Below are positions 1-11,957 of a stretch of 64,000 nt of DNA, one piece after another (the stretch's first letter is position 1; each line of letters begins with the position of its first letter). Made by a program: the position numbers and the translations under genes. The DNA comes from a bacterium (GTDB lineage Bacteria > Planctomycetota > B15-G4): the NCBI GenBank assembly GCA_030428785.1, contig JAUIEF010000005.1, positions 10,919 to 74,918 on the forward strand. The letters run 5' to 3'. The notes beneath the pieces were generated by a model. That model ran no database searches. It had not been told where the DNA came from and saw nothing but the letters and a program-made list of their open reading frames with translations.

Positions 1-191
1 CACTGCGCATGGAGCCCGCGCAGCGTGCCGCGCACCGATCGGCTGTGGTTGTCCTGCACGAACGGCAGCGCGATGCCCGCCTCCTCGTAGCGGTCCGCCC
101 GGTACGTCTCGAGGAAGAACCCGCGGTCGTCCTGGAACACGCGGGGCTCGATGAAGACGACGCCGTCCAGCTTGGTGGTCGTGACGTTCAT
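1..191 (-). CDS. rfbC: dTDP-4-dehydrorhamnose 3,5-epimerase, 5' part (runs off the window edge)
   Basis: Manual translation of the minus strand from ATG at 191: [30 protein letters not shown]...[18 protein letters not shown]. Contains the RmlC motifs DxRGxF, QDNHS and RGLH. Not in the ORF track. Confidence 0.93.
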
Positions 192-321
192 GGGGGTCCG
201 GGCGGGAGAGAGCGGGCGCGTGGGAGGGACGGCGCGGCGCCGTGCCGCCGGTTGTACGCGAACCGGGATTCCGCTCCAACCGCCGGGGTAGAATCCGCGC
301 CCCCGTCGGCCACGAGGTCCC

Positions 322-720
322 ATGACCCACGAGACGCGCTCGATCTTCACGGTCCGCTCGTACGAGATCGACTCGTACAGCCACCTCAACAACGGGGTCT
401 ACGTGAGCTGGTACGAGCAGGGCCGGCAGGACTACCTGCGCTCGCTCGGCTTCACCTACGACGGGTTCGCGGAGCGGCGCGAATGGTTCGTGGTCGGCCG
501 CACGGAGGTCGTGTTCAAGGCGGCGATCCACGAGGGCGAGACGGTGGAGCTCGTGAGCCGCGTGGAGGAGCTCGGCCGCACGAGCGTGCGCTTCCACCAG
601 GAGATGTTCCGCGACGGCGCGTCGGTGAGCACGGCGCACACGGTCATGGTGTTCAGCGCCGACGGCGCGTCGATCCCCATCCCGGCCGACTTCCGCGCCG
701 CCGTCGAGGGCGCCGGCTGA
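322..720 (+). CDS. Acyl-CoA thioesterase (YbgC/4-HBT hotdog family)
   Basis: [22 protein letters not shown] matches the hotdog thioesterase DxxxHxNNxxY motif; 132 aa. TAGAAT -10-like box at 289-294. Confidence 0.85.
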
Positions 721-745
721 GTCGCGAGAACCGCCCGGACGAGAA

Positions 746-781
746 CCGCCGCGCGCCGGGGGGATCCCCGACACGCGGCGG
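746..781. terminator. GC-rich hairpin between convergent genes, probable bidirectional terminator
   Basis: ccgccgcg (746-753) pairs with cgcggcgg (774-781) around an inner cgggg/ccccg stem; lies between the stops at 720 and 815. No U-tract. Confidence 0.45.
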
Positions 782-814
782 CGAAGGCACGTGGCGTCGT
801 CCGTCGACGGCGCG

Positions 815-1750
815 TCAGCGCAGCTTGGGCGAGAGGACCTCGTCGGTGCTGTAGAGGAGGCCGTCGGCGGAGGCGGAGTCCTCGGCGACGGTCGCGCGGC
901 GCACGACGCCCTGCTCCTCGCCGATCTGCATCTTCGCGATCTCCTCGTAGTCGACCGCGGAGCCCTGGCCGGTCAGCACGTCGAGCTCGGCCTGCTGGCG
1001 GGCCCGCACCTCGGCGAGCTTCGCGACCATCTGGTCGAGGCTGGCCACCTCGTAGCGGCTGCACTCCTCGATGGTCTGCTTCCGCTTCTCGAGCATGTCG
1101 ATGAGCTTCTCGTTGCGGGCGATGGCGTCCACCTGACGGTCGAGCTGCCACAGCTGCGTCTGGAACTGGCCGCGCTCGGTCTCGAGCTGGTCGAGCAGCT
1201 CGGAGAGACGCTCCTCCTGCTGCTGGAGGTAGACGAGGTCGTGGGCGGCGTCGGCAGCGCGGTTGGCGTAGGCGACACGCGTCTGCGAGATCTGGTTCGC
1301 CTTGGAGCGCGCCTGGTCGAGCGTGTAGGTGCGGTTGTCGAAGCGCACGCTCGCGACGGTGCGGACACCGCCGTACGACGCCTTCTGCACGACGGCGGCC
1401 TCGGCCTCGTCGAGCAGCGGGCGCAGCGAGTCGAGGTCGCGGTCCGCCAGCGCCACGACGCGCTCGGACACCGCGCGATCGCGGTCGAGCTGTCGCATCT
1501 GCTCGCGGAGTTCCGCGAGGTCGCCGCGCACCTGTCCGATCTTGCCCGGGTACTCACGCTCGAGCTCGCGCAGCTGCGCCCGGAGCGCGACGGGGTCCTC
1601 GATGCGCTCGTCGATGTGCGACATGAGGTGCTCGCGCGCCTGGCTGACGAGGGCCGCGGTGCGGTGCGGGCCGGCGATCAACACGGCAGCACCGGCGCTG
1701 ACGGCCGTGATCACGCTCACGCGGATCAGGGTCTTGAAGATACCGGCCAT
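815..1750 (-). CDS. Coiled-coil protein with hydrophobic N-terminus, PspA/IM30-like
   Basis: Real start MAGIFKTL at 1750 with RBS aaagga. Hydrophobic ITAVSAGAAVLIAG, then IEDPVALRAQLRELE (resembles the PspA EDP motif) and long heptad-rich helices; 311 aa. Confidence 0.6.
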   Translation of the reverse strand: MAGIFKTLIRVSVITAVSAGAAVLIAGPHRTAALVSQAREHLMSHIDERIEDPVALRAQLRELEREYPGKIGQVRGDLAELREQMRQLDRDRAVSERVVALADRDLDSLRPLLDEAEAAVVQKASYGGVRTVASVRFDNRTYTLDQARSKANQISQTRVAYANRAADAAHDLVYLQQQEERLSELLDQLETERGQFQTQLWQLDRQVDAIARNEKLIDMLEKRKQTIEECSRYEVASLDQMVAKLAEVRARQQAELDVLTGQGSAVDYEEIAKMQIGEEQGVVRRATVAEDSASADGLLYSTDEVLSPKLR

Positions 1751-1899
1751 GGTCTTGTCCTTTCGTGGGGGTGTCTCTCGGTGGGCCCCTGGGGGCCGAC
1801 GAGCGCGTTGTTGGGGACACCCCGCCGGGTCTTTCACCGCGACGCCGCTCCCGCGTGGCGAATTGGCGGCCGGCCTGACATGCCCGCGGCCGGATGGCC

Positions 1900-1905
1900 T
1901 ACAAT
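1900..1905 (+). promoter_or_regulatory. -10 box TACAAT 7 nt before the ECF start codon (leaderless-type promoter)
   Basis: TACAAT-cgccgcg-ATG with no Shine-Dalgarno; ctgaca at 1875-1880 (19-nt spacer). Confidence 0.55.
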
Positions 1906-1912
1906 CGCCGCG

Positions 1913-2665
1913 ATGCTCAGCAATCTCACCACCGGCTTCATCGGCCGACTGCGCGCCCGCGACCCCGCCGCCTGGTTCGAGCTCTGGGAGACCTTCGGTC
2001 CGATCCTGAGGGCCCAGCTGTTCAAGTGGGGCGGCGGCCGCATCGGCTTCGAGACCGTCGAGGACATGTCCCAGGAGACCCTCGCGGCGCTCGCCGACTC
2101 CATCGACCGGCACGACCCCAACAAGGGTGCGCGCTTCTCGACCTGGCTCCTGGCCATCGCCAAGCACACGCTCGGCGGCGAGATCGACCGGCGCATGGCG
2201 CTCAAGCGCGGCGCCGGCAAGAAGCCCGTCGAGCTCGACGAGACCTGGGCGGGCGCGCACGACGGCCCCGGTCCGGGCGGCACCTACGAGCAGGCCGTGT
2301 TCGACGCCAAGGTCGAGGCCGCCATCCGCATGGTCGAGCGCGAGATCGACCTCATGGACTTCTCGGTCTACCGGATGCGCGTGTTCGACGGGACGAGCGG
2401 CAAGGACGTCGCCAAGGCGCTCGGCGTGAGCGAGCCGACGATCAGCCGGCGGCTCTCTCGCGTGCGCAACCTCCTGCGGGAGCGCATCGGTGAGGTCATG
2501 TCCAAGTTCAGCTTCACCGAGGAGGAGGCGCAGGAGGCGGCGCGAAACGGGGTCGACCCCAATCCCACCAAGGCCGCCGACGCGCTCTTCGACGAGGCGC
2601 TCGCCGACATCTACCACCGCCAGATGGCGTTGCGGCGGGAGGATGAGGTCAGCCGGGTCGACTGA
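1913..2665 (+). CDS. ECF sigma-70 factor with C-terminal extension
   Basis: MLSNLTTGFIGRLRARDPAAWFELW; region 2 (VEDMSQE, FSTWLLAIAK); region 4 HTH (GKDVAKALGVSEPTISRRLSRVR); ~55 extra C-terminal residues. Confidence 0.88.
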   Translation: MLSNLTTGFIGRLRARDPAAWFELWETFGPILRAQLFKWGGGRIGFETVEDMSQETLAALADSIDRHDPNKGARFSTWLLAIAKHTLGGEIDRRMALKRGAGKKPVELDETWAGAHDGPGPGGTYEQAVFDAKVEAAIRMVEREIDLMDFSVYRMRVFDGTSGKDVAKALGVSEPTISRRLSRVRNLLRERIGEVMSKFSFTEEEAQEAARNGVDPNPTKAADALFDEALADIYHRQMALRREDEVSRVD

Positions 2666-2725
2666 GCGCGGGACCGGGACGTCGCCGGTCCCGGACGCGC
2701 GGCCCGACCGGGGGATCTCGCAGGC

Positions 2726-4876
2726 ATGAATCCCATCGCCCTCCCCATCCAGCTCCTGCTCGCCCTCGCGGCCTGCTTCCTGGGCATCTGGCTGCTGGTC
2801 AAGCTGCTCGTCGGTCTGGGCTGGTTGCTGGGACAGGTGTTCCGGTTCATCCAGACCGTGCTCGGTCGCATCGGCGCGTTCGTCGTCGGCATGGGCTCCG
2901 ACGCGTTGCGCGTCGTCGGCGGCACGGTCACCGCCGCGTTCTTCGTCCCCTTCATCGTGTCGAACATCGTGTTGGGACGCTGGTCCCGCGCGAACCACTA
3001 CGGCAAGGCGCTCGAACGCGAGGCCGTGGGCGTCGGGACGAGCCTCTACCGGCTGGCCATCGGGCACGTCGGCCGCCTGCTCGGGCTCACGAGCCTCACG
3101 GACGGCATCGAGCGCCGGATCCCCGAGGCGATGGCCCGCGCGCCGGCGCCGGACCGCCCGCGCGGTCGCCCGGACGCCTTCGACGGCTACACGGTGGTCG
3201 GCTCGCTGCCGTCGGGCGGCTCCGGCGCGCGCCTCTACCTCGCGCAGCCGCTCCCCGACAAGCGCGAGCGCCTCACGCGCAACGGCCGGTCCGTGCCGGG
3301 CAAGGTGGTCATCAAGTCCTTCGACCTGGCCGACGGCTCGACCATGCCGCAGATCGTGCGCGAGAGCCGCGCGCTCGAGGCCGCCCGCGACATGGGCCTC
3401 GTGCTGGAGCACGAGCTCACCGCGTCGCGCTTCCACTACGTCATGCCGTACGTCCCGGGCGACGACCTCACGCTCGTGACGCAGCGCCTGCACGACCAGG
3501 CGGGCCCCGAGGGCCTCTCGGGTCGGCCGCTCGAGCACGCGATGGCCTACACGTCCGACCTGCTCGCGACGATGCAGCGCTTCCACGCGGCGGGCCTGTG
3601 GCACAAGGACATCAAGCCCAGCAACATCATCGTGTCCGACGGACGCGTGCACCTCGTGGATCTCGGGCTCACGACGCCGCTGCGCTCGGCGATGACGCTC
3701 ACGACGCACGGCACCGAGTACTTCCGCGACCCGGAGCTCGTCCGCCTCGCGCTGCGCGGCGTCAAGGTCCAGGAGGTCGACGGCGTCAAGTTCGACATCT
3801 ACGGCGCGGGCGCGGTGCTCTACTCGGTCATCGAGAACAGCTTCCCGGCGCACGGGAGCCTGAGCCAGATCCACAAGCGGTGCCCCGAGGCACTGCGCTG
3901 GATCGTGCGGCGCGCGATGGCGGACATGAGCAAGCGCTACGCGTCGGCGGCCGAGATGCTCGCCGACCTGCGGACCGTCATGGCCGCGAGGGACCCGTAC
4001 GCCGTGACGCCCGCGTCGCTGCCCTCGATGTCGGGCGACCCGGCGATGGCTCGCGCCATCGCCGACGAGGTCGACCGGGCCCACGCCGACGGGTTCGACG
4101 CCGCGCCGGCGATCGCCTCGATCTCCCCGCGCCAGCGGCCGGTCGCCGTCGACAAGGCGTCCGTCGCCGCGACGACGCGTCACGGCGGCCTGCGTTGGGG
4201 CGTGACCGCCGCGGTCGTCCTGCTGGGCGTGTTCGGGCTGGGCTTCGTCGCGCTGCTCTTCCGCGGCGCGAACCTCACGGCGCTCCCGGCTTCGGGCGGA
4301 CCCGACGTCTGGCCCGCCGGCGTGTCCGAGTCGTACCCGTCGCCGATCCCCGTCGGCGCCCCGACGCCCTCGGGTCAGGACTGGAAGCAGGTCGGTCCCG
4401 CGCCCTACGTGAAGGACCGCATGGCGAAGAACCTGGCGCCCCATCGGGCCGAGCCGGCGGCGCTGCTCGTCGTGGACGACCTGGCGGCCGCCGCCGACGA
4501 CGACCTCCAGGCGCGCGTCGACGGGCTGCTCCGCTCGCTCGAGCTCGCGAACTTCGAGCTGCTCGGGGTGGCCGGGGACGACGAGACGCCCGACGACGAC
4601 ATGGCGCTCGTGAGCGAGGCGCGGCTGGCGATCGGGCAGGCTTCCGCCTGGGACGGCGACGTCGCCGACCGGCTCGACCGCGTCATGGACGAAGCGGAGC
4701 CGCGGCTCTCCGGCGTCGTGCGCATCGCGCGCGGCGACACCCCGGGCACCCTCATGCTGCACGCCGTCGCGCAGCGTCAGCAGGACGCCCTCGATCTCGC
4801 CTCGCTGCTCGACCAGGGGGCGCGCGGCCGCGTGGAGATCCAGGCCCTCGAGCCCGTGGCGGTGATCAGCCGCTGA
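2726..4876 (+). CDS. Membrane-bound Hanks-type Ser/Thr protein kinase
   Basis: SGGSGARLY P-loop, VVIK, HKDIKPSN, DLG, GTEYFRDPE, DIYGAG; hydrophobic N-terminal region and a TM helix after the kinase domain (WGVTAAVVLLGVFGLGFVALLF). Confidence 0.88.
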   Translation: MNPIALPIQLLLALAACFLGIWLLVKLLVGLGWLLGQVFRFIQTVLGRIGAFVVGMGSDALRVVGGTVTAAFFVPFIVSNIVLGRWSRANHYGKALEREAVGVGTSLYRLAIGHVGRLLGLTSLTDGIERRIPEAMARAPAPDRPRGRPDAFDGYTVVGSLPSGGSGARLYLAQPLPDKRERLTRNGRSVPGKVVIKSFDLADGSTMPQIVRESRALEAARDMGLVLEHELTASRFHYVMPYVPGDDLTLVTQRLHDQAGPEGLSGRPLEHAMAYTSDLLATMQRFHAAGLWHKDIKPSNIIVSDGRVHLVDLGLTTPLRSAMTLTTHGTEYFRDPELVRLALRGVKVQEVDGVKFDIYGAGAVLYSVIENSFPAHGSLSQIHKRCPEALRWIVRRAMADMSKRYASAAEMLADLRTVMAARDPYAVTPASLPSMSGDPAMARAIADEVDRAHADGFDAAPAIASISPRQRPVAVDKASVAATTRHGGLRWGVTAAVVLLGVFGLGFVALLFRGANLTALPASGGPDVWPAGVSESYPSPIPVGAPTPSGQDWKQVGPAPYVKDRMAKNLAPHRAEPAALLVVDDLAAAADDDLQARVDGLLRSLELANFELLGVAGDDETPDDDMALVSEARLAIGQASAWDGDVADRLDRVMDEAEPRLSGVVRIARGDTPGTLMLHAVAQRQQDALDLASLLDQGARGRVEIQALEPVAVISR

Positions 4877-4901
4877 CGCGGTTCGCGCCGCGCGGCGCCG
4901 T

Positions 4902-7463
4902 TCAACGACCCGTCGCGCCGACCTCCTCGGCCCGGGCGTCGGGGGGGAGCTGCCACGCTTCGTCCCACCAGCCCGCGGCGAGCACGCCGCCGTCGCCCTC
5001 GGTGAGCACCCGCCCGTCGAAGAGCGCGTAGTCCGGGTAGCCCACGCCGGAGACGAACGGTGCGAGCGTGTCACCGAGCCGCGCGCCGCGCACCCCCGTG
5101 CTCGCGAAGGCGCCGACGAGTCCGTCCGGGTCGTCGACGCGCGGCGCGACGAACACGGCGCCGAGGTCGTCGCCCTCCCACCTGCGCTCACCGAGCCTCA
5201 GCGCGCCGCGTGTCGCGCGGAGCGGGGCGTCCTCGCCGAGCACCGCGTCCCACGCGGCGTTGTCGTCCGCATTGCCGTAGAGGATGACGTTGCACGGCGG
5301 ACGTCCTCCCGCGAGCCACTCCTCGTCGGTGACGATCGGTGCGCGACCGTTGCCGCGGTACCACCAGACCTGCCCGTCGTGCCGCGCGCGAGCGAGCAGC
5401 ACCGCATCCGTCGCGTCGTCGCCGCGCGTCCCGACGACGAGCACGAAGCTGCGGTCGAACGCGCGCTTGAAGGGCCCCATGCGGTCGGGGCGCTTGAGGC
5501 CCGGATCGCCCCGCGCTCCCCGGTGCCAGCGTCCCTCGCGCCGCTCGAGCTCGACGGTCCCCCCCTCGCCCTCCAGGACGCCGAGGTCGTCGCCGTCCAC
5601 CTCGAGTCGCGTCCCGGCGGTACGCGCGGTGACGTCGAGGGTGAGCACCCGCACATTGCTCGTCGCGATGCGATGGATGTCCGCGCCGTCCGCGGCGACA
5701 CGTCGAGCGCTCACCCGGAACGGCCGCGACTCGTCGAGGACGCGCAGGACTCCCAGGTCGTGGTGTCGCGCGTCGATGCCGGGCCCCGCGGACACCCACT
5801 CGACGTCCGCGGTCGGCGCGACCTCCGGGTGCTCGTCGAACAGCTCGAAGATGCCCGGCCAGTCGAGGCAGTCGGTGCCGGGCGCCGCGCCTCCGTCCCA
5901 CCAGTGGCCCGCGCCCTCCTGCAGGTGCACGCGCGGCGGAGCGCCGGCCTCCGTGAGCGCGGCGACCATCGCCTCCGCCTCGCTCACCGGCACGCTCGTG
6001 TCCTTGGTCCCGTGCAGCACGAAGGTCGGCACCTGCACGAGCCCGTCGAGCAGCTCGAGCGTCAGGCTCGGGCGGTCGGCCGCGTGCCAGACGTCGCGCA
6101 GCGCGCCCTCCGGTCGCCCGCCGTAGGTGTCGAATCCGCACCACCCGGCGCTCGGTGCGGCGGCGGAGAAGCCGTCCGTGTCGTTCGCCGCGAGGTGCCA
6201 CGTGCCGTGGCCGCCCATCGAGTGGCCGGTGACCTGCACGCGCCGCGGCGACACGCCGCCCGACGCGAGCGCGAGGTCCCGGACCTCGTAGGCGTCGACG
6301 CGACCCCAGTCCTGCCAGTCGAAGCCGTACGGACGACGGTTCGTCGGCGCGGCGATCCACACGCCCGGGCGGCGCGAGTAGCAGCGGGCCTGTGCGAGCG
6401 CATCGACCCCCGCTCCGTGCAGCGAGAGCACGAGCGAGGGATCCCGCGGCTCGCCACCCGCGTCGTCGGCGGCGGGCAACCACCCGAAGAACTGCACCGA
6501 GTCGTCGATGCGGGAACGGAACGTCACGCGACGGGCGGGACCGTCCTCGACGACGCGCAGTGGCACCGTCGAGCGGGCGTCGGCGACGCCGTCGGCGCGC
6601 GCGACGACGGCACGGACGACCTCTTCGACATCCGCGGAGGCGCGGGCACCGTCGCGGAACGCCTGCGGCACGGCGACCTTGGCGACCTCGAGCGGTCGCA
6701 GCGCCCCCACCTCGACGGTGCCCGGCGCGAAGAGCGCGTCGCCCGCCAGCGTGAGCACCGGCCGCACCGTCCGCTCCGAGGCGTTCACCACGAGCAGGCC
6801 CATCGGGCCGACGTCGTCCGCGCCGACGACGAGGTCGGGCACCGTGCGATCCGCGACGTCGAGCAGCAGCTCGCCCGAAGGCGAGACGAGCTCGAGGGCG
6901 AAGCGGCCGCGGATGCCCGTCACGTAGAGTTCGTTGCGCCCGGCCTCGAGCTGGACGGGCACGCCGGGCCAGCCGTAGCGATAGACGTCACCGCCGAAGG
7001 CGTCGCCGTTCACGAAGAGCTGCGACGCGCCGCGCACCCGCGCGAGCATCACGCGGCGCGTCGGGACCTCGAGGGTCGTGTGCGCCCAGGCGGCGCCGCG
7101 GCCCTCGGGGCCGCCGTCGTCGGCGACCTCACGCATCTCCCAGCGCGCCTCCTCGCCGCGCTCCCCGACGAGCGCCTCGCCCGCCCGCGGCGCGGGCGCG
7201 TCGCGGTCCAGCAGGTGGCGCGCGAAGACCGCGTCCGGCCGGAACGGGCGGCGGCCGCGGTCGTCCACCGCGGCGAGGACGAGCCAGGACGTCGCACGGA
7301 GGACCTCGGGCCCGGCCTCGTCCTCGGCCGCGTGCGCCCGCCGTGCGGGAGCCGCGCGGAGAGCCGGTGGCCTCGTCGCGGCCGATGCGGGTGCGATCAG
7401 CAGGCACGCGGCGAACAGGAGGGTCGGTCGGCGCATCGTGCGGCTCCTCGGAGGGGCCGCCAT
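4902..7463 (-). CDS. Secreted alpha/beta-hydrolase (S9 peptidase/esterase-like) with accessory domains
   Basis: Signal peptide MRRPTLLFAACLLIAPASA (alternative start 7436); catalytic triad motifs GHSMGG, LHGTKD, GAGHW. Confidence 0.8.
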   Translation of the reverse strand: MAAPPRSRTMRRPTLLFAACLLIAPASAATRPPALRAAPARRAHAAEDEAGPEVLRATSWLVLAAVDDRGRRPFRPDAVFARHLLDRDAPAPRAGEALVGERGEEARWEMREVADDGGPEGRGAAWAHTTLEVPTRRVMLARVRGASQLFVNGDAFGGDVYRYGWPGVPVQLEAGRNELYVTGIRGRFALELVSPSGELLLDVADRTVPDLVVGADDVGPMGLLVVNASERTVRPVLTLAGDALFAPGTVEVGALRPLEVAKVAVPQAFRDGARASADVEEVVRAVVARADGVADARSTVPLRVVEDGPARRVTFRSRIDDSVQFFGWLPAADDAGGEPRDPSLVLSLHGAGVDALAQARCYSRRPGVWIAAPTNRRPYGFDWQDWGRVDAYEVRDLALASGGVSPRRVQVTGHSMGGHGTWHLAANDTDGFSAAAPSAGWCGFDTYGGRPEGALRDVWHAADRPSLTLELLDGLVQVPTFVLHGTKDTSVPVSEAEAMVAALTEAGAPPRVHLQEGAGHWWDGGAAPGTDCLDWPGIFELFDEHPEVAPTADVEWVSAGPGIDARHHDLGVLRVLDESRPFRVSARRVAADGADIHRIATSNVRVLTLDVTARTAGTRLEVDGDDLGVLEGEGGTVELERREGRWHRGARGDPGLKRPDRMGPFKRAFDRSFVLVVGTRGDDATDAVLLARARHDGQVWWYRGNGRAPIVTDEEWLAGGRPPCNVILYGNADDNAAWDAVLGEDAPLRATRGALRLGERRWEGDDLGAVFVAPRVDDPDGLVGAFASTGVRGARLGDTLAPFVSGVGYPDYALFDGRVLTEGDGGVLAAGWWDEAWQLPPDARAEEVGATGR

Positions 7464-7473
7464 GATGCCAGCT

Positions 7474-9831
7474 TCACCCGAGCGCGGGCGCCTCCCGGTC
7501 GCGCAGGCACCGCTCGAGCACCAGGCCGAGCCGCTCCGCGTCGACGTCGCGGCCGAGGACGCCCGTCGCGTGGCGCGCCGGCTCCCGCTCGTCGAGTCGG
7601 CCGGCCGTGACGACGACGGTGGGCGGCGCGCGGCGGTCGGGGCGTCGGCGCGCGACCTCCTCCACCACGGCGTCGACGTCCATGTCGCCGAGCGCGGCGT
7701 CGACGAACATCGCGTCGAAGTCCTTGCGGGTCGCCGAGCGGACGGCCTCCACGCCCGACTCGCAGACGGTGACCTCGACGCCGAGCCCCTCGAGCGCGCC
7801 GACGAGCGGGTCGTGCCGTGCGTCGCGGCTCGCCAGGAGCACGTGGGTCCCCGGCGGCGCGCGCTGGGCCGAGGCCGCGTCCGGGAACGACACGTCGACG
7901 CGCGGCGCGAGCAGGTCCGTGACCGCGTGCAGGAGCTTGTCCCGGCGCACGGGGAGCATGAGCGACTCGACGCGACCGGGCGCCCCGCGACGCGGGCGCA
8001 GCGGCGGCGTCCCGAGGCGGGTGAGGACGAGCACCGGCAGGGACTCCGTCGCCGGGTCGTCGCGCAGCGCACGGAGGAAGGCGTCGGCGTCGCCGTCCGG
8101 GAGGTGCCGGTCCAGGACGAGCAGCTCGACGGGACGCGCCTCCTCGAACCCGGCGTCGAGCAGGCGCGTCGCCGTGGCGACGTCCGCCGCGTCGTCGACG
8201 CGCAGCGACCAGGCGTCGAGGTGGTGCGCGAGGACCTGGCGGACGCGCTCGTGTCCCACGACGAGGAGCGCGCGCCGCCCGGACAGGGACGCGTCGGGCC
8301 GCCGCTCGGGAAGCGGCCGACCGTGACGCGGCAGCGAGATCGTGAACGAGAAGGTCGCGCCCCGCCCCACCTCGCTGTCGACGAGCAGGTCGCCGCCCAT
8401 GAGCTCGACGAGCTGCCGGCTGATGGCCAGCCCGAGGCCCGTGCCGCCGTACTTGCGCGTCGTCGAACCGTCCACCTGGCTGAACGACTCGAAGAGCCGC
8501 GCGTGGTCGGCGGGGTCGATGCCGATGCCCGTGTCGCGCACGGAGAAGCGCACGACGGCCGAGTCCTCGCCGACGTCGACGGTCTCCGCGGAGACCACGA
8601 CCTCGCCGTCCTCGGTGAACTTCACGGCGTTGCCCACGAGGTTGATGAGCACCTGCCGGATGCGTCCGGGGTCGCCGGCGACGTCGCGCGGCGCGTGCTC
8701 CTCCACGCGGGCCACGAGCTCGACGCCCCGGGCGGCCGCCTTCTCGGCGAGCACGCCGGCGACGTCCTCCACGACGGCGCGGAGGTCCACGGCCTTCTCG
8801 TCGAGCACCAGACGCCGCGCCTCGATGCGCGAGAAGTCGAGGATGTCGTCGATCACCGCGACGAGCGACTGCCCGGCGGTGCGCATCGTGTCGGCGTACT
8901 CGCGCTGCTCGGCGTCGAGCTCGGTCGACAGCATGAGGTCCGCCATGCCGATGACGCCGTTCAACGGCGTGCGGATCTCGTGGCTCATGTTCGCGAGGAA
9001 CTCGGACTTCGCCTGTGTCGAGAGGTGCGCGCGGACGAGCGCCTCGTCGAGGTCGTGGTTACGCACGCGGAGCTCCTCCGCGATCTCCTCGGCGCGCTGC
9101 TGCTCGCGCGCCTGCCGCGCGAGCGCGCGCTGGACACGCCGCACGGCGGGCCGGAACACGAGCACGCCGGCCATGAGGAGCGACAGCAGCGTGAGCGCGA
9201 GGACCGTGAGCTCGGCCCGCTGGAGGAACGCGAGGTGCGCCGACGACTGCTCGTCATGGCGCGCGACGATGCCGTCCATGCCCGCGAAGAACGCGGCTTC
9301 ATGGACGAGCAGCTCGCGCACGGCGTCGCGGCTCTCCTCGTCGAGGCGGCCGAAGTCGCGATACTCCACGCCGTCGACGAGCCGCCGGAGCGCGCCGCGC
9401 ATCGCGTCGAACCGCGGCCCCACGGCGACGAGCATGCGCCGCTGCTCGTCACGGCCGCCGTCGGTCGCCCGCAGCTCGCGACCGAGCTCGGCGTGCGCCG
9501 CCTCCCACGTCGCCGCGGTCGCGGCGAGGTCCTCGAGCGCATGCGCGAAGTCGTCGAACCTGTCGGAGGCCTCGAGCAACAGCGCCGACCGGCAGAGCCG
9601 CGCACCGAGCGCCCGCTGGCGCGACGCGATCTCGGCGACGCGCCCGGCGCCCTCGTGCCGGAGGAACGTCATCTGGAGCAGCGCCTGTCCCGTGATGGAC
9701 AGCAGGGCCACGGCGCCCAGCGCGAGGAACGAGCGTCGGCGGAGGCGGCGGGTCGCGTCCCGCCAGTCCGCGTCCTCGCCGGAGCGCGGGCGCTCGGCGC
9801 GGGGGCGCGTGGACTCGGCGTCGGCGTCCAT
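7474..9831 (-). CDS. Hybrid sensor histidine kinase with NarX/PilJ-like periplasmic domain and two degenerate receiver domains
   Basis: Two TM helices flanking [12 protein letters not shown]; [10 protein letters not shown]-box, [10 protein letters not shown]-box, DTGIG, GGTGLGL; two C-terminal REC-like domains. Start chosen at MDADAEST. Confidence 0.88.
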
Positions 9832-10017
9832 CTCCGGAGGCTCCTGGGGGCCCGTCCGCGCGGGGTCGGCCGCGGACGGGGAGGGATCCCCTCTCATCGA
9901 CCCGGCCCGGGGGGCACCCTTAGCGGACGCGCGACGCGCCACGGGACAGCCCGATCCGGTGCGAGTGGGCGGTGCGTGGCGGGCCCGGGCGCCTCGGCAC
10001 CGGACCCGCGAGCCGGC

Positions 10018-10455: not shown

Positions 10456-11957
10456 TTGGGCGTGCCGACCTCGGGGTCGCCCGTCGGCGCCTCGACGGCC
10501 GCGAGCAGCGCGACGTCGTCACGCAGACGCTCGAGCTCGAGCTCGTCGCGGTAGTCGTAGTACCCGCGCACGCGCGCCGACTTGTCGACGAGCGCGAACT
10601 TGCCGCTGTGGAAGAGCGGGGGCATGCCCGCGACCTCCTCGGCGCCGGCGTTCACCGGCAGCCGGAAGCCCGCCTCGGCGAGGTACTGGATGTCGCGCGG
10701 CGTCCCCGTGAGCAGGCGCCACGTCTCCATCGTGCCGCCGTACTTCGCGCGGTACGCCGTGAGCGCCTGGGGCCCGTCGTTGCGCGGGTCGACCGTCACG
10801 GAGAGGAAGCGCGTGGCGAGCCCCTCGTCGAGCAGCGCCGAGTAGACGTCGCTCATCTTGCCGCAGGTGACGCCGCAGCGCGTGAAGATGAAGTCCACGA
10901 TCCACACGTCGCCCAGCAGCTCCTTGCGCGTGAAGGGCTTGCCATCGTCGCCGACGAGCGAGAACTCGGGCAGGCGGCCGTGGTCGGGCAGGCCGGTGTC
11001 GTCGGAGGGACCGTCCGCCGTCGCGTCGGCGGCGGGCGAGACGAGATCGCCGGACTCCTCGGCGGTGACGCAGTCCTCGCAGGACGCGTCGCCGGGGCGG
11101 GCGGCGCACGCGACGTCGAGCGTGAGCGCGAGCAGGACCGCGGGGAGGTAGAGCACGGACGCGACGACGACGCGCCGCGCGCGCGCGCGATCGGGACGGG
11201 CGCGGAACGCGAAGGCGGCCAGGAGGAAGACCGCACCGAGCGAGAGCGCCGTGAGGCCGTAGGCGGCGCGCGCGGCGCCGAGCGTGACGGGGAGGATCGA
11301 GACGAGCATCACGGACATCACCAGGAGGGGCATCTGCCAGCGGAGGAGGGAGTCGTCGGGATCTTCGCCGGACAGCATCCGCATGCCGCCGGAGGCGTAC
11401 TGCTCCCGGTACATGGACGCGATGGCGAAGAAGTGCGGCAACTGCCAGAGGAAGACGAGGAGGAAGGCGGCCCACGAGAGCGGCGACGGCCCGCCCGCCG
11501 CGGCGGCGCCGACGAGCAGCGGAAGCGCGCCGGGGATCGCGCCGACCCAGGTGTTGCTCACGGTCCGTCGCTTGAGCGGCGTGTACACACCCAGGTAGAT
11601 CGTGATCGCGGCCGCCTGGTAAGCGAGCGCCTCGAGGCCCGCGCCGAGGCCGATCATGAGGAAGCCCGCGGTGAGCGAGACCGCGCTCGCCGCGAGCACC
11701 TGGCGCTCGGAGAGCGCGCCCGTCACGAGCGGACGCAGGCGGGTGCGCTCCATGCGCGCGTCCGCCTCGCGCTCGATGTAGTGGTTCAGCGCGCAGCCCG
11801 CCGCCGCCACGAGCAGCGTGCCGGCGAGCGCCCACGGGAGCGCGGCGAAGTCCGCCGGGCGCTCGACGAGGTAGCCGACCGCCGTGCACACGAGCACGAG
11901 GACCGCGATACGCGGCCGGACGAGCGCGGCGAGGCCGTGTCGGTCGAGACGCGCCAC
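10452..11957 (-). CDS. ctaB: Protoheme IX farnesyltransferase (heme O synthase) fused to a C-terminal SCO1/SenC copper chaperone domain
   Basis: ALNHYIEREADARMERTRLRPL, YTPLKRRT, WQLPHFFAI (CtaB); then DFIFTRCGVTC (CxxxC) and FHSGKFALVD (SCO His). Single uninterrupted frame. Confidence 0.9.
   Translation of the reverse strand: MARLDRHGLAALVRPRIAVLVLVCTAVGYLVERPADFAALPWALAGTLLVAAAGCALNHYIEREADARMERTRLRPLVTGALSERQVLAASAVSLTAGFLMIGLGAGLEALAYQAAAITIYLGVYTPLKRRTVSNTWVGAIPGALPLLVGAAAAGGPSPLSWAAFLLVFLWQLPHFFAIASMYREQYASGGMRMLSGEDPDDSLLRWQMPLLVMSVMLVSILPVTLGAARAAYGLTALSLGAVFLLAAFAFRARPDRARARRVVVASVLYLPAVLLALTLDVACAARPGDASCEDCVTAEESGDLVSPAADATADGPSDDTGLPDHGRLPEFSLVGDDGKPFTRKELLGDVWIVDFIFTRCGVTCGKMSDVYSALLDEGLATRFLSVTVDPRNDGPQALTAYRAKYGGTMETWRLLTGTPRDIQYLAEAGFRLPVNAGAEEVAGMPPLFHSGKFALVDKSARVRGYYDYRDELELERLRDDVALLAAVEAPTGDPEVGTPK

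Follow-up and report, generated by a model that had tools for sequence, protein, structure and literature searches.

A 64,000-nucleotide (nt) stretch of contig JAUIEF010000005.1 from a member of the Planctomycetota (positions 10,919–74,918; hereafter the window) carries, at window positions 815–4876, three genes encoding a coiled-coil protein with a predicted membrane anchor (hereafter the coil protein), an extracytoplasmic function (ECF) sigma factor and a membrane Hanks-type Ser/Thr kinase, which together constitute one conserved signalling module of Planctomycetota. The best overall explanation, and one we consider probable, is that the module is a kinase-gated ECF system for envelope signalling with the coil protein as its main output. 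The layout agrees with an initial annotation of the sequence, in which the sigma gene was described as divergent from the coil gene and as followed by the kinase gene after a 60-nt gap (the sigma stop codon ends at 2665 and the kinase ATG lies at 2726).

815–1750, minus strand: coil gene, encoding a 311-aa protein
1913–2665, plus strand: ECF sigma gene, 250 aa, with Pfam and NCBIfam matches above cut-off
2726–4876, plus strand: Hanks-type Ser/Thr kinase gene, 716 aa, with a Pkinase match

The G+C content of this region is approximately 72% and long spurious open reading frames are plentiful, but the coil, sigma and kinase genes can be taken as real rather than as chance reading frames because each has hundreds of conserved homologues. 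Co-occurrence of the three genes in related genomes had been set beforehand as the test on which the proposed module would stand or fall, and the arrangement was found to be conserved across Planctomycetota. Among the best 80 loci from a scan of 185,579 species genomes, a divergent sigma gene preceded the coil gene in 74 of the 78 loci with enough sequence, and the kinase gene followed the sigma gene in 65 of 69. In an even sample of 401 Planctomycetota genomes, coil and sigma genes occurred together in 45, the coil gene by itself in two and the sigma gene by itself in five, and the remaining 349 had neither gene (Fisher p = 2.5e-51, without correction for phylogeny), so that sigma accompanied the coil gene in 45 of 47 coil-bearing genomes; in one of the two coil-only genomes the sigma gene was split at contig ends.

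The order of thioesterase, coil gene, divergent sigma gene and kinase gene was found in 13/13 coil-bearing genomes of the same GTDB family, a pattern that might by itself reflect nothing more than synteny. In an inspection of 20 loci outside this family, the triad was kept in families f9, f78, f45 and f98 (the kinase was missed in one f9 locus) at identities down to 26% for the coil protein and 44% for sigma; the thioesterase and peptidase flanks were gone from these triads, being retained solely in the closest family.

322–720, plus strand: 4HBT thioesterase gene, neighbouring the coil gene
4902–8072, minus strand: S9 peptidase gene, neighbouring the kinase gene

As these are the genes flanking the module, no anti-sigma gene is adjacent, in line with what had been noted initially. 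A domain scan of the flanking genes revealed no anti-sigma domain or gene among the neighbours of the module, and the zinc anti-sigma motif HxxxCxxC was not found in the N-terminus of the kinase. Carriers of the module comprise metagenome-assembled genomes of Planctomycetota from Phycisphaerae-type lineages, together with the cultured Engelhardtia mirabilis Pla133 and its group. The budding Pirellula-like families sampled were without the coil family, and among all families sampled sigma was restricted to those that bear the coil gene. The carrier lineages correspond to planctomycetes reported as dividing by binary fission or as switching division mode, which may be plain phylogeny. Within the module's own family both coil and sigma were missing from two genomes (G004 and G013, the latter only 58% complete), and in families f58 and f23 the coil gene was unlinked from the kinase gene.

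The link between sigma and the coil gene became apparent from the DNA separating them. When 75 coil–sigma intergenic regions were aligned, a bipartite element with fixed spacing, yGAAA(t)-N15-(t)CCCA(A/C)nAAC, was found to read toward the coil gene, and in 74 of the 75 regions it was positioned on the coil strand 50–135 nt upstream of the coil start codon. With a matrix built from 49 sites, all loci outside the training set but one scored at least 17 bits, the exception being L143 with 11.8 bits. Eight sites of at least 17 bits were detected in the 5.68-Mb genome (11.4 million positions), compared to none in a shuffled genome, and the top site genome-wide was the candidate promoter of the coil gene itself. 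This site ends 56 nt upstream of the coil ATG, placing the predicted transcription start near position 1800. At the other end of the gene, a hairpin with a predicted RNA fold of −66.1 kcal/mol (z = −3.4; 0/200 shuffles folded equally well) forms a probable terminator, and the coil gene is thus likely monocistronic.

1807–1836, minus strand: candidate coil promoter TGAAAG-N15-CCCAACAAC, 28.9 bits
745–782, minus strand: 17-bp hairpin followed by UUCUCGU, a probable terminator directly 3' of the coil stop codon

The element was retained where the genes have come apart. It was present upstream of the coil gene in five loci without an adjacent sigma gene, and was recognisable before most coil homologues of only 24–28% identity (families f58, f23, f98 and f33). 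All 14 genomes of this kind encoded a sigma orthologue elsewhere (39–46% identity over its full length), followed by the kinase wherever downstream sequence was available. In most cases the detached sigma operon is itself preceded by the element in the same orientation, which is the classical autoregulatory layout of ECF sigma factors. That the element moves with both target and regulator is the strongest available evidence for a cognate promoter of this sigma. The bipartite motif is most likely the sigma factor's own promoter, and the coil gene very probably its main transcriptional output; the initial annotation had proposed the coil gene as the output of the circuit, and the motif conserved upstream of that gene, repeated within the sigma gene and before the distant sigma operons, speaks for it.

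The same motif might instead be bound by an unrelated regulator or by another sigma factor, with the neighbourhood of the genes reflecting a shared membrane biology. Such a reading could draw on the observation that the strict motif pattern is, genome-wide, barely commoner than its reversed control. It is nevertheless improbable, as most genomes hold two copies of the motif inside the sigma factor's own locus, the motif follows coil gene and sigma operon alike where they have separated, and motif, coil and sigma share the same phylogenetic range. Furthermore, the architecture of two short blocks with a fixed 16-nt spacer, pointing at the gene downstream and located 50–135 nt from its start codon, is that of a typical ECF promoter.

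The second copy of the motif in the locus lies within the coding sequence of sigma, approximately 90 nt before its stop codon, while a separate housekeeping-type box immediately precedes the sigma gene.

2543–2572, plus strand: second motif copy CGAAAC-N15-TCCCACCAAG, within sigma codons R211–K220 and 153 nt before the kinase gene
1900–1905, plus strand: TACAAT, a −10 box of the sigma-70 type with its end 7 nt upstream of the sigma ATG

A consensus of CGAAAy-N15-TCCCAnnAAG, encoding the peptide RNGxxxNPxK, was found at nt 627–639 of nearly all sigma genes of the module's own clade, and the embedded motif occupied the same position in the gene in 60 of 75 sigma orthologues. The codons used at this site are unusual for these genes: Arg211 is encoded by CGA in 58 of 69 sequences (5.9% of Arg codons elsewhere in these genes), Asn217 by AAT in 57 of 69 (16% of Asn codons elsewhere) and Pro218 by CCC in 62 of 69 (46% of Pro codons elsewhere). 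This retention of rare codons indicates selection on the DNA beyond that on the peptide. In the clades that have the motif upstream of the sigma operon, both the embedded DNA element and the peptide motif are missing.

The TACAAT box is preceded by CTGACA at 1875–1880, 19 nt upstream, and no Shine-Dalgarno sequence is found between the box and the sigma ATG, a layout shared by close relatives. In 24 of 75 loci a box of the TAnAAT type was found no more than 22 nt from the start of sigma, and some others of those listed have one slightly further upstream; a scan of positions 600–5200 with the strict sigma-70 consensus revealed no full −35/−10 pair. The short distance of 7 nt to the ATG suggests that the sigma mRNA is leaderless or has a very short leader, and the sequence suggests constitutive expression of sigma from such a transcript.

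Beyond the module, the second-best motif of the genome (contig C76:20124–20153, 27.5 bits) precedes, by 35 nt, a gene whose 188-aa product is a lipoprotein with an LPAC lipobox; its helical repeats resemble those of apolipoproteins (PF01442, E 1e-6, below cut-off). A tblastn search of eight relatives did not find a homologue of this lipoprotein next to motif sites; in one genome (G002), the motif precedes another small exported helical-repeat protein analogous to it. Three more small proteins, membrane-bound or exported, had weaker motif copies upstream of their orthologues in two genomes each (contigs C122:13564 and C255:55629; loci L228, L217, L211 and L222). As possible minor members of the regulon these are weak candidates, but they fit an envelope-directed response.

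The sigma protein was compared to profiles and structures of known sigma factors. It belongs to the ECF (group 4) sigma-70 factors, with scores above the cut-offs for Sigma70_r2 (35.2 vs 24 bits), Sigma70_r4_2 (29.2 vs 25.7 bits), Sigma70_ECF (25.2 vs 21.1 bits) and TIGR02937 (50.6 vs 42.9 bits), and shares 59–87% identity across 75 orthologues of related loci and 37–47% in distant clades. Its AlphaFold2 (AF2) model was compact (predicted template modelling score 0.80), with the ECF sigma factors AlgU, RpoE and SigW in their anti-sigma-bound conformations as the best Foldseek matches; the sigma-2.2 region (residues 41–70) was modelled at low confidence (predicted local distance difference test, pLDDT, 54–60). 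Two features of the protein are candidates for a regulatory function.

2054–2056, plus strand: codon of Thr48, at the first-Asp position of the sigma-2.2 DAED/DxxDxxQE motif (T-V-E-D-M-S-Q-E in the window), a candidate phospho-switch
2495–2662, plus strand: conserved C-terminal extension of sigma, about 55 aa (residues ~195–250), with an [FY]SFT motif and a predicted helix

In canonical ECF sigma factors the DAED motif (DxxDxxQE) of sigma-2.2 contacts the beta' subunit, while in the ECF43 group it is replaced by S/Q-T-T-A, in which the Thr at position 3 is directly phosphorylated by a neighbouring Hanks kinase (PMC13147305, PMC8999054). The sigma family described here instead has T48-V-x-D51-L-S-Q-E, with mostly Q, R or K and otherwise E at position 3, so that positions 1 and 3 are non-acidic in most orthologues. 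T48 was invariant in 75/75 orthologues and kept in a clade of 40% identity (ETIKDVSQE). In this family the acidic patch is thus lost in part and a Thr has become fixed, a pattern compatible with a phospho-switch. The ECF43 signature (STTA/QTTA, Thr at position 3) was not found in this sigma, whose aligned Thr is at position 1 and whose fourth-position Asp is kept. Gating of sigma by the kinase, as suggested in the initial annotation, is plausible given the missing anti-sigma gene and the invariant Thr in place of the first DAED Asp; its signature is unlike that of ECF43.

The ECF43 pairs EcfP/PknT from Vibrio parahaemolyticus and EcfK/PknS from Xanthomonas citri resemble the module in that an ECF sigma factor is encoded beside a transmembrane Hanks kinase without an anti-sigma factor (PMC13147305, PMC8999054), and in having an altered acidic sigma-2.2 motif with a conserved Thr. 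In addition to the position of that Thr, the module differs from them in the conserved 55-aa C-terminal extension of its sigma and in its promoter motif, which is found upstream of a divergent target and inside the sigma coding region rather than before the sigma gene.

The extension offers a different explanation, in which the kinase does not act on sigma at all: sigma would be controlled by its C-terminal extension, in the manner of ECF41/42, or by its abundance, and the kinase would target other proteins, possibly the coil protein. S200 and T202 of the [FY]SFT motif as well as D227 are invariant, and residues 222–249 are modelled as a confident helix (pLDDT 87–93); together with these, the compact model and its anti-sigma-bound-like matches make a regulatory role of the extension a live alternative. 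D51 is moreover invariant and the window sigma has E50, so that sigma may bind core polymerase without being phosphorylated. Set against this, the sigma–kinase pair stays joined in clades with a relocated coil gene, T48 does not vary although polymerase contacts at this position are normally acidic, and the described kinase-linked ECF groups all lack an anti-sigma factor and are taken as kinase substrates. We regard control of sigma independent of the kinase as quite unlikely, and favour gating by phosphorylation.

The kinase meets the definition of a Hanks-type (eukaryote-like) Ser/Thr kinase, with a Pkinase (PF00069) score of 65.6 bits against a cut-off of 31.7 over residues 194–424 and with the catalytic motifs GGSG, VVIK, HKDxKPxN, DLG and THGTEYxxDPE intact in 65 orthologues; in the window these include HKDIKPSN and THGTEYFRDPE. 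Three hydrophobic segments (residues 1–42, 60–84 and 489–520) agree with its initial designation as a membrane kinase.

3173–4015, plus strand: kinase catalytic domain, residues ~150–430
4190–4285, plus strand: kinase transmembrane segment, residues 489–520, hydropathy 2.58

The C-terminal domain (residues 521–716) following the last segment is predicted to lie outside the cytoplasm, and the C-terminal third of the protein was variable and the least conserved part among the 65 orthologues.

The third component, the coil protein, appears from sequence comparisons to found an undescribed family, with more than 580 homologues at 90% clustering and 281 at 50%, approximately 270–340 aa in length and none with a Pfam domain. 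Pfam and NCBIfam scans gave only sub-threshold matches to generic coiled-coil families (SMC, Phage_scaffold, APG6_N and DUF1664), for which reason the source annotation "chromosome segregation ATPase" was rejected as a coiled-coil artefact. Identity between families is 50–60%, unusually high for a coiled coil. The AF2 model (pLDDT 76.5) comprises an N-terminal hydrophobic helix, a helix at residues 28–49, a long hairpin and two shorter helices. The hairpin, about 11–13 nm long, is built from helices 53–124 (72 residues) and 144–231 (88 residues) at a pLDDT of 91–98, and is tipped by a beta hairpin (134–143).

1670–1729, minus strand: N-terminal hydrophobic anchor of the coil protein, residues ~8–27, followed by invariant G27 and R30
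1583–1603, minus strand: IEDPVAL motif, residues 50–56, with P53 invariant among close relatives

The anchor was recognised as a hydropathy segment (7–27/11–29), and an uncharged span of 17–23 residues was found at this place in 89 relatives. Its orientation could not be derived from the positive-inside rule, with basic residues averaging 2.1 on the N-terminal side of the anchor and 2.2 on the C-terminal side, and a net charge of +2.1 before and +0.7 after. As the topology is not fixed by charge, the coil protein cannot be presumed to work on the cytoplasmic face in the way of PspA.

The IEDPVAL sequence is the IEDPxxL motif on which the initial annotation based its description of the coil protein as PspA/ESCRT-III-like. 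The motif is present as described, but the description built on it was not upheld. The PspA family profile PF04012 (gathering score 33.9 bits) was not matched by the window protein at E ≤ 1; among 29 relatives it gave weak matches to just four (best E 0.0055), which ranked behind many generic families of coiled coils. A search of PDB sequences with the coil family profile returned no PspA, Vipp1 or ESCRT-III protein, only an Mce protein at E 5.6, and an exhaustive profile search of 1.84 billion proteins gave 281 matches, all from the coil family itself. The IEDP-type motif is furthermore replaced by VDELxxR in the distant branch, which makes up the distant half of the family. A literature search joining Planctomycetes, ECF sigma factors and PspA found nothing.

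A structural comparison with PspA/Vipp1, proposed in the initial annotation, gave a mixed result. Vipp1 was nominally the best Foldseek match of the coil model (6zvr, E 2.3e-3, template modelling (TM) scores 0.28/0.36; 8qbr, TM 0.36/0.50), but no match reached E ≤ 0.001, V-ATPase subunit D superposed better (TM 0.41/0.58), and chemoreceptor, BAR and Tc-toxin helices scored about equal to Vipp1. As a calibration, the model of the true ECF sigma factor matched real ECF structures with only E 5.5e-4 and TM 0.26–0.38. Using hhalign, the coil family aligned to 25 planctomycete PspA proteins with a score of 34.7–36.5 (P = 2–3e-4, probability 38–47%), whereas 40 block shuffles reached at most 24.7 and the alignment in reverse reached 18. 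This signal derives from 13–56 N-terminal columns, where MxGIFK and IDxxIEDP of the coil family resemble MGIF and LDxAEDP of PspA; between MAGIFK and IEDP, an uncharged hydrophobic span of 17–23 residues is inserted relative to PspA. The significant alignment stayed confined to the N-terminus when hhalign was run in global and low-threshold modes.

The coil protein could on these grounds truly belong to the PspA/IM30/ESCRT-III superfamily as a very divergent member with a membrane anchor, having taken the place of canonical PspA and acting under the kinase-gated sigma to remodel or seal the cytoplasmic membrane. The N-terminal similarity above shuffled and reversed controls would fit such an origin, as would the nominal first rank of Vipp1 given the similarly modest calibration of a true homologue, and the layout of the helices recalls alpha0–alpha5 of PspA, the anchor and a short helix being followed by EDP, the long hairpin and a final pair of helices. 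The distribution is also nearly exclusive: PF04012 proteins were found in 3/47 coil genomes vs 102/354 others (105/401 Planctomycetota; p = 6e-4, uncorrected), and none was found in the module's own genome (G000) or in families f1, f9, f45, f78 and f58. However, the profile searches, the restriction of the alignment to the N-terminus, the loss of EDP in the distant branch and the equally good matches to unrelated coiled coils all count against kinship, and the coil hairpin is about twice the length of that of PspA, ends in a beta-hairpin tip and is preceded by a hydrophobic anchor in place of an amphipathic helix. Membership in this superfamily is possible but unlikely. We also find it doubtful that the coil protein is a deeply diverged anchored PspA/ESCRT-III branch that replaced PspA and is controlled by a kinase-phosphorylated ECF sigma factor with a promoter inside its own coding sequence, providing positive feedback specific to the kinase; if true, an ESCRT-III-like membrane-remodelling protein would for the first time be placed under a sigma factor of this kind.

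Psp and Lia systems (pspF/pspABC; liaIH-liaFSR) nevertheless resemble the module in encoding a membrane-associated coiled-coil protein beside its inducing regulator, with induction being a prediction in the present case, and canonical PspA is missing from most genomes carrying the module. They differ in that the module regulator is a kinase with an ECF sigma factor rather than a sigma-54 activator or a two-component system, and that its output has no PF04012 match, a hydrophobic-helix anchor, a hairpin of approximately twice the length and a beta-hairpin tip.

A target gene divergent from its regulator is also known from cpxP/cpxRA and pspA/pspF, where CpxP acts on CpxA and PspA on PspF. By analogy, the coil protein may be mainly a feedback regulator that sits beside the kinase, binds its membrane or periplasmic portions and is titrated off by envelope damage, without losing a possible role as effector. 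The most strongly motif-marked gene is indeed divergent from the regulator operon, both coil protein and kinase are membrane-anchored, and the linkage of their genes is very stable; the unusually high conservation of the coil protein between families likewise suggests specific partners. With CpxP/CpxRA the module shares a regulator operon facing its most specific target, CpxP being a small all-helical envelope protein that feeds back on its sensor kinase, but the signalling chemistry, protein family and anchoring differ, and the analogy is one of layout only. The coil gene is, however, unlinked from the kinase gene in families f58 and f23, and a conserved periplasmic contact is unlikely since the extracytoplasmic domain is the least conserved part of the kinase. 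A primary function in feedback on the kinase is hence a less probable account that still deserves attention, and we prefer to view the coil protein as an effector.

In the preferred kinase-gated circuit, sigma and the membrane kinase would be co-transcribed at a basal level from the housekeeping-type promoter. Sigma would most likely be weak or inactive until the kinase, sensing a cue in the membrane or periplasm, phosphorylates it, with T48 on the RNA polymerase-contacting surface of sigma-2.2 as the candidate site and the SFT motif of the C-terminal extension as an alternative. Active sigma would then read the bipartite promoter: one copy would drive the divergent monocistronic coil gene, the embedded copy would drive extra transcription of the kinase alone and thereby provide positive feedback, and the few weaker copies would serve genes for small exported or membrane proteins. 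The coil protein, held by its single N-terminal anchor, would most likely serve as an effector in envelope stress, working at the cytoplasmic membrane, with possible feedback on the kinase.

Several observations weigh against this circuit. The embedded motif scores only 10.7 bits in the window, and the extra members of the regulon are weakly indicated, by two genomes each. The transcription starts at both motifs are predictions, and another factor could read the motif. The acidic residues retained in sigma-2.2 and the placement of T48 at position 1 rather than at the phosphorylated position 3 of ECF43 fit phosphorylation less well, and the charge distribution around the coil anchor leaves its orientation unassigned.

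Regarding the remaining features of the locus, a hairpin at 2666–2700 in the sigma–kinase gap was considered as an attenuator and rejected, as it folded no better than shuffled sequences (z = −0.01). The large S9-family peptidase/esterase gene (4902–8072, minus strand) is convergent with the kinase gene; being syntenic solely within the closest family, it probably does not belong to the module. It is adjoined by a gene for an 822-aa hybrid histidine kinase with receiver domains (7474–9942, minus strand). At the window edge, a gene fragment encoding an RmlC-like protein (dTDP-4-dehydrorhamnose epimerase; 3–392, minus strand) appears to overlap the start of the thioesterase open reading frame on the opposite strand.

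An ECF sigma factor combined with a Hanks kinase in place of an anti-sigma factor is a known kind of regulation that has been predicted for several planctomycetal ECF groups. ECF59–ECF62 and ECF217 have a conserved neighbouring Ser/Thr kinase and no anti-sigma factor, and their phosphorylation has been predicted (PMC7826278, PMC8999054). Compared by description only, these groups resemble the module in phylum, kinase neighbour and missing anti-sigma factor, while their named representatives are from Planctomycetales and Rhodopirellula and the sigma factor of the module is confined to coil-bearing families. A coil partner and a promoter motif are not described for these groups in the texts consulted (PMC7826278, PMC8999054). 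What is new in the module is a defined promoter, its embedded copy in the sigma gene, the position-1 Thr in sigma-2.2 and the family of output proteins.

The comparative data yield a complete and testable circuit, comprising a sensor kinase, a candidate phospho-site, a promoter motif, a tiny regulon and one dominant output, and a cultured carrier with a complete genome is available in Engelhardtia mirabilis Pla133. Kinase-linked ECF sigma factors are abundant in Planctomycetota and, to our knowledge, no member has been characterised in this phylum and no target is known. The embedded promoter provides a clear example of overlapping protein and regulatory codes, in which the feedback would act on the kinase and not on sigma. 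As the coil family occurs in genomes without PspA, its members may reasonably be considered as candidates for another effector of membrane stress in these bacteria.

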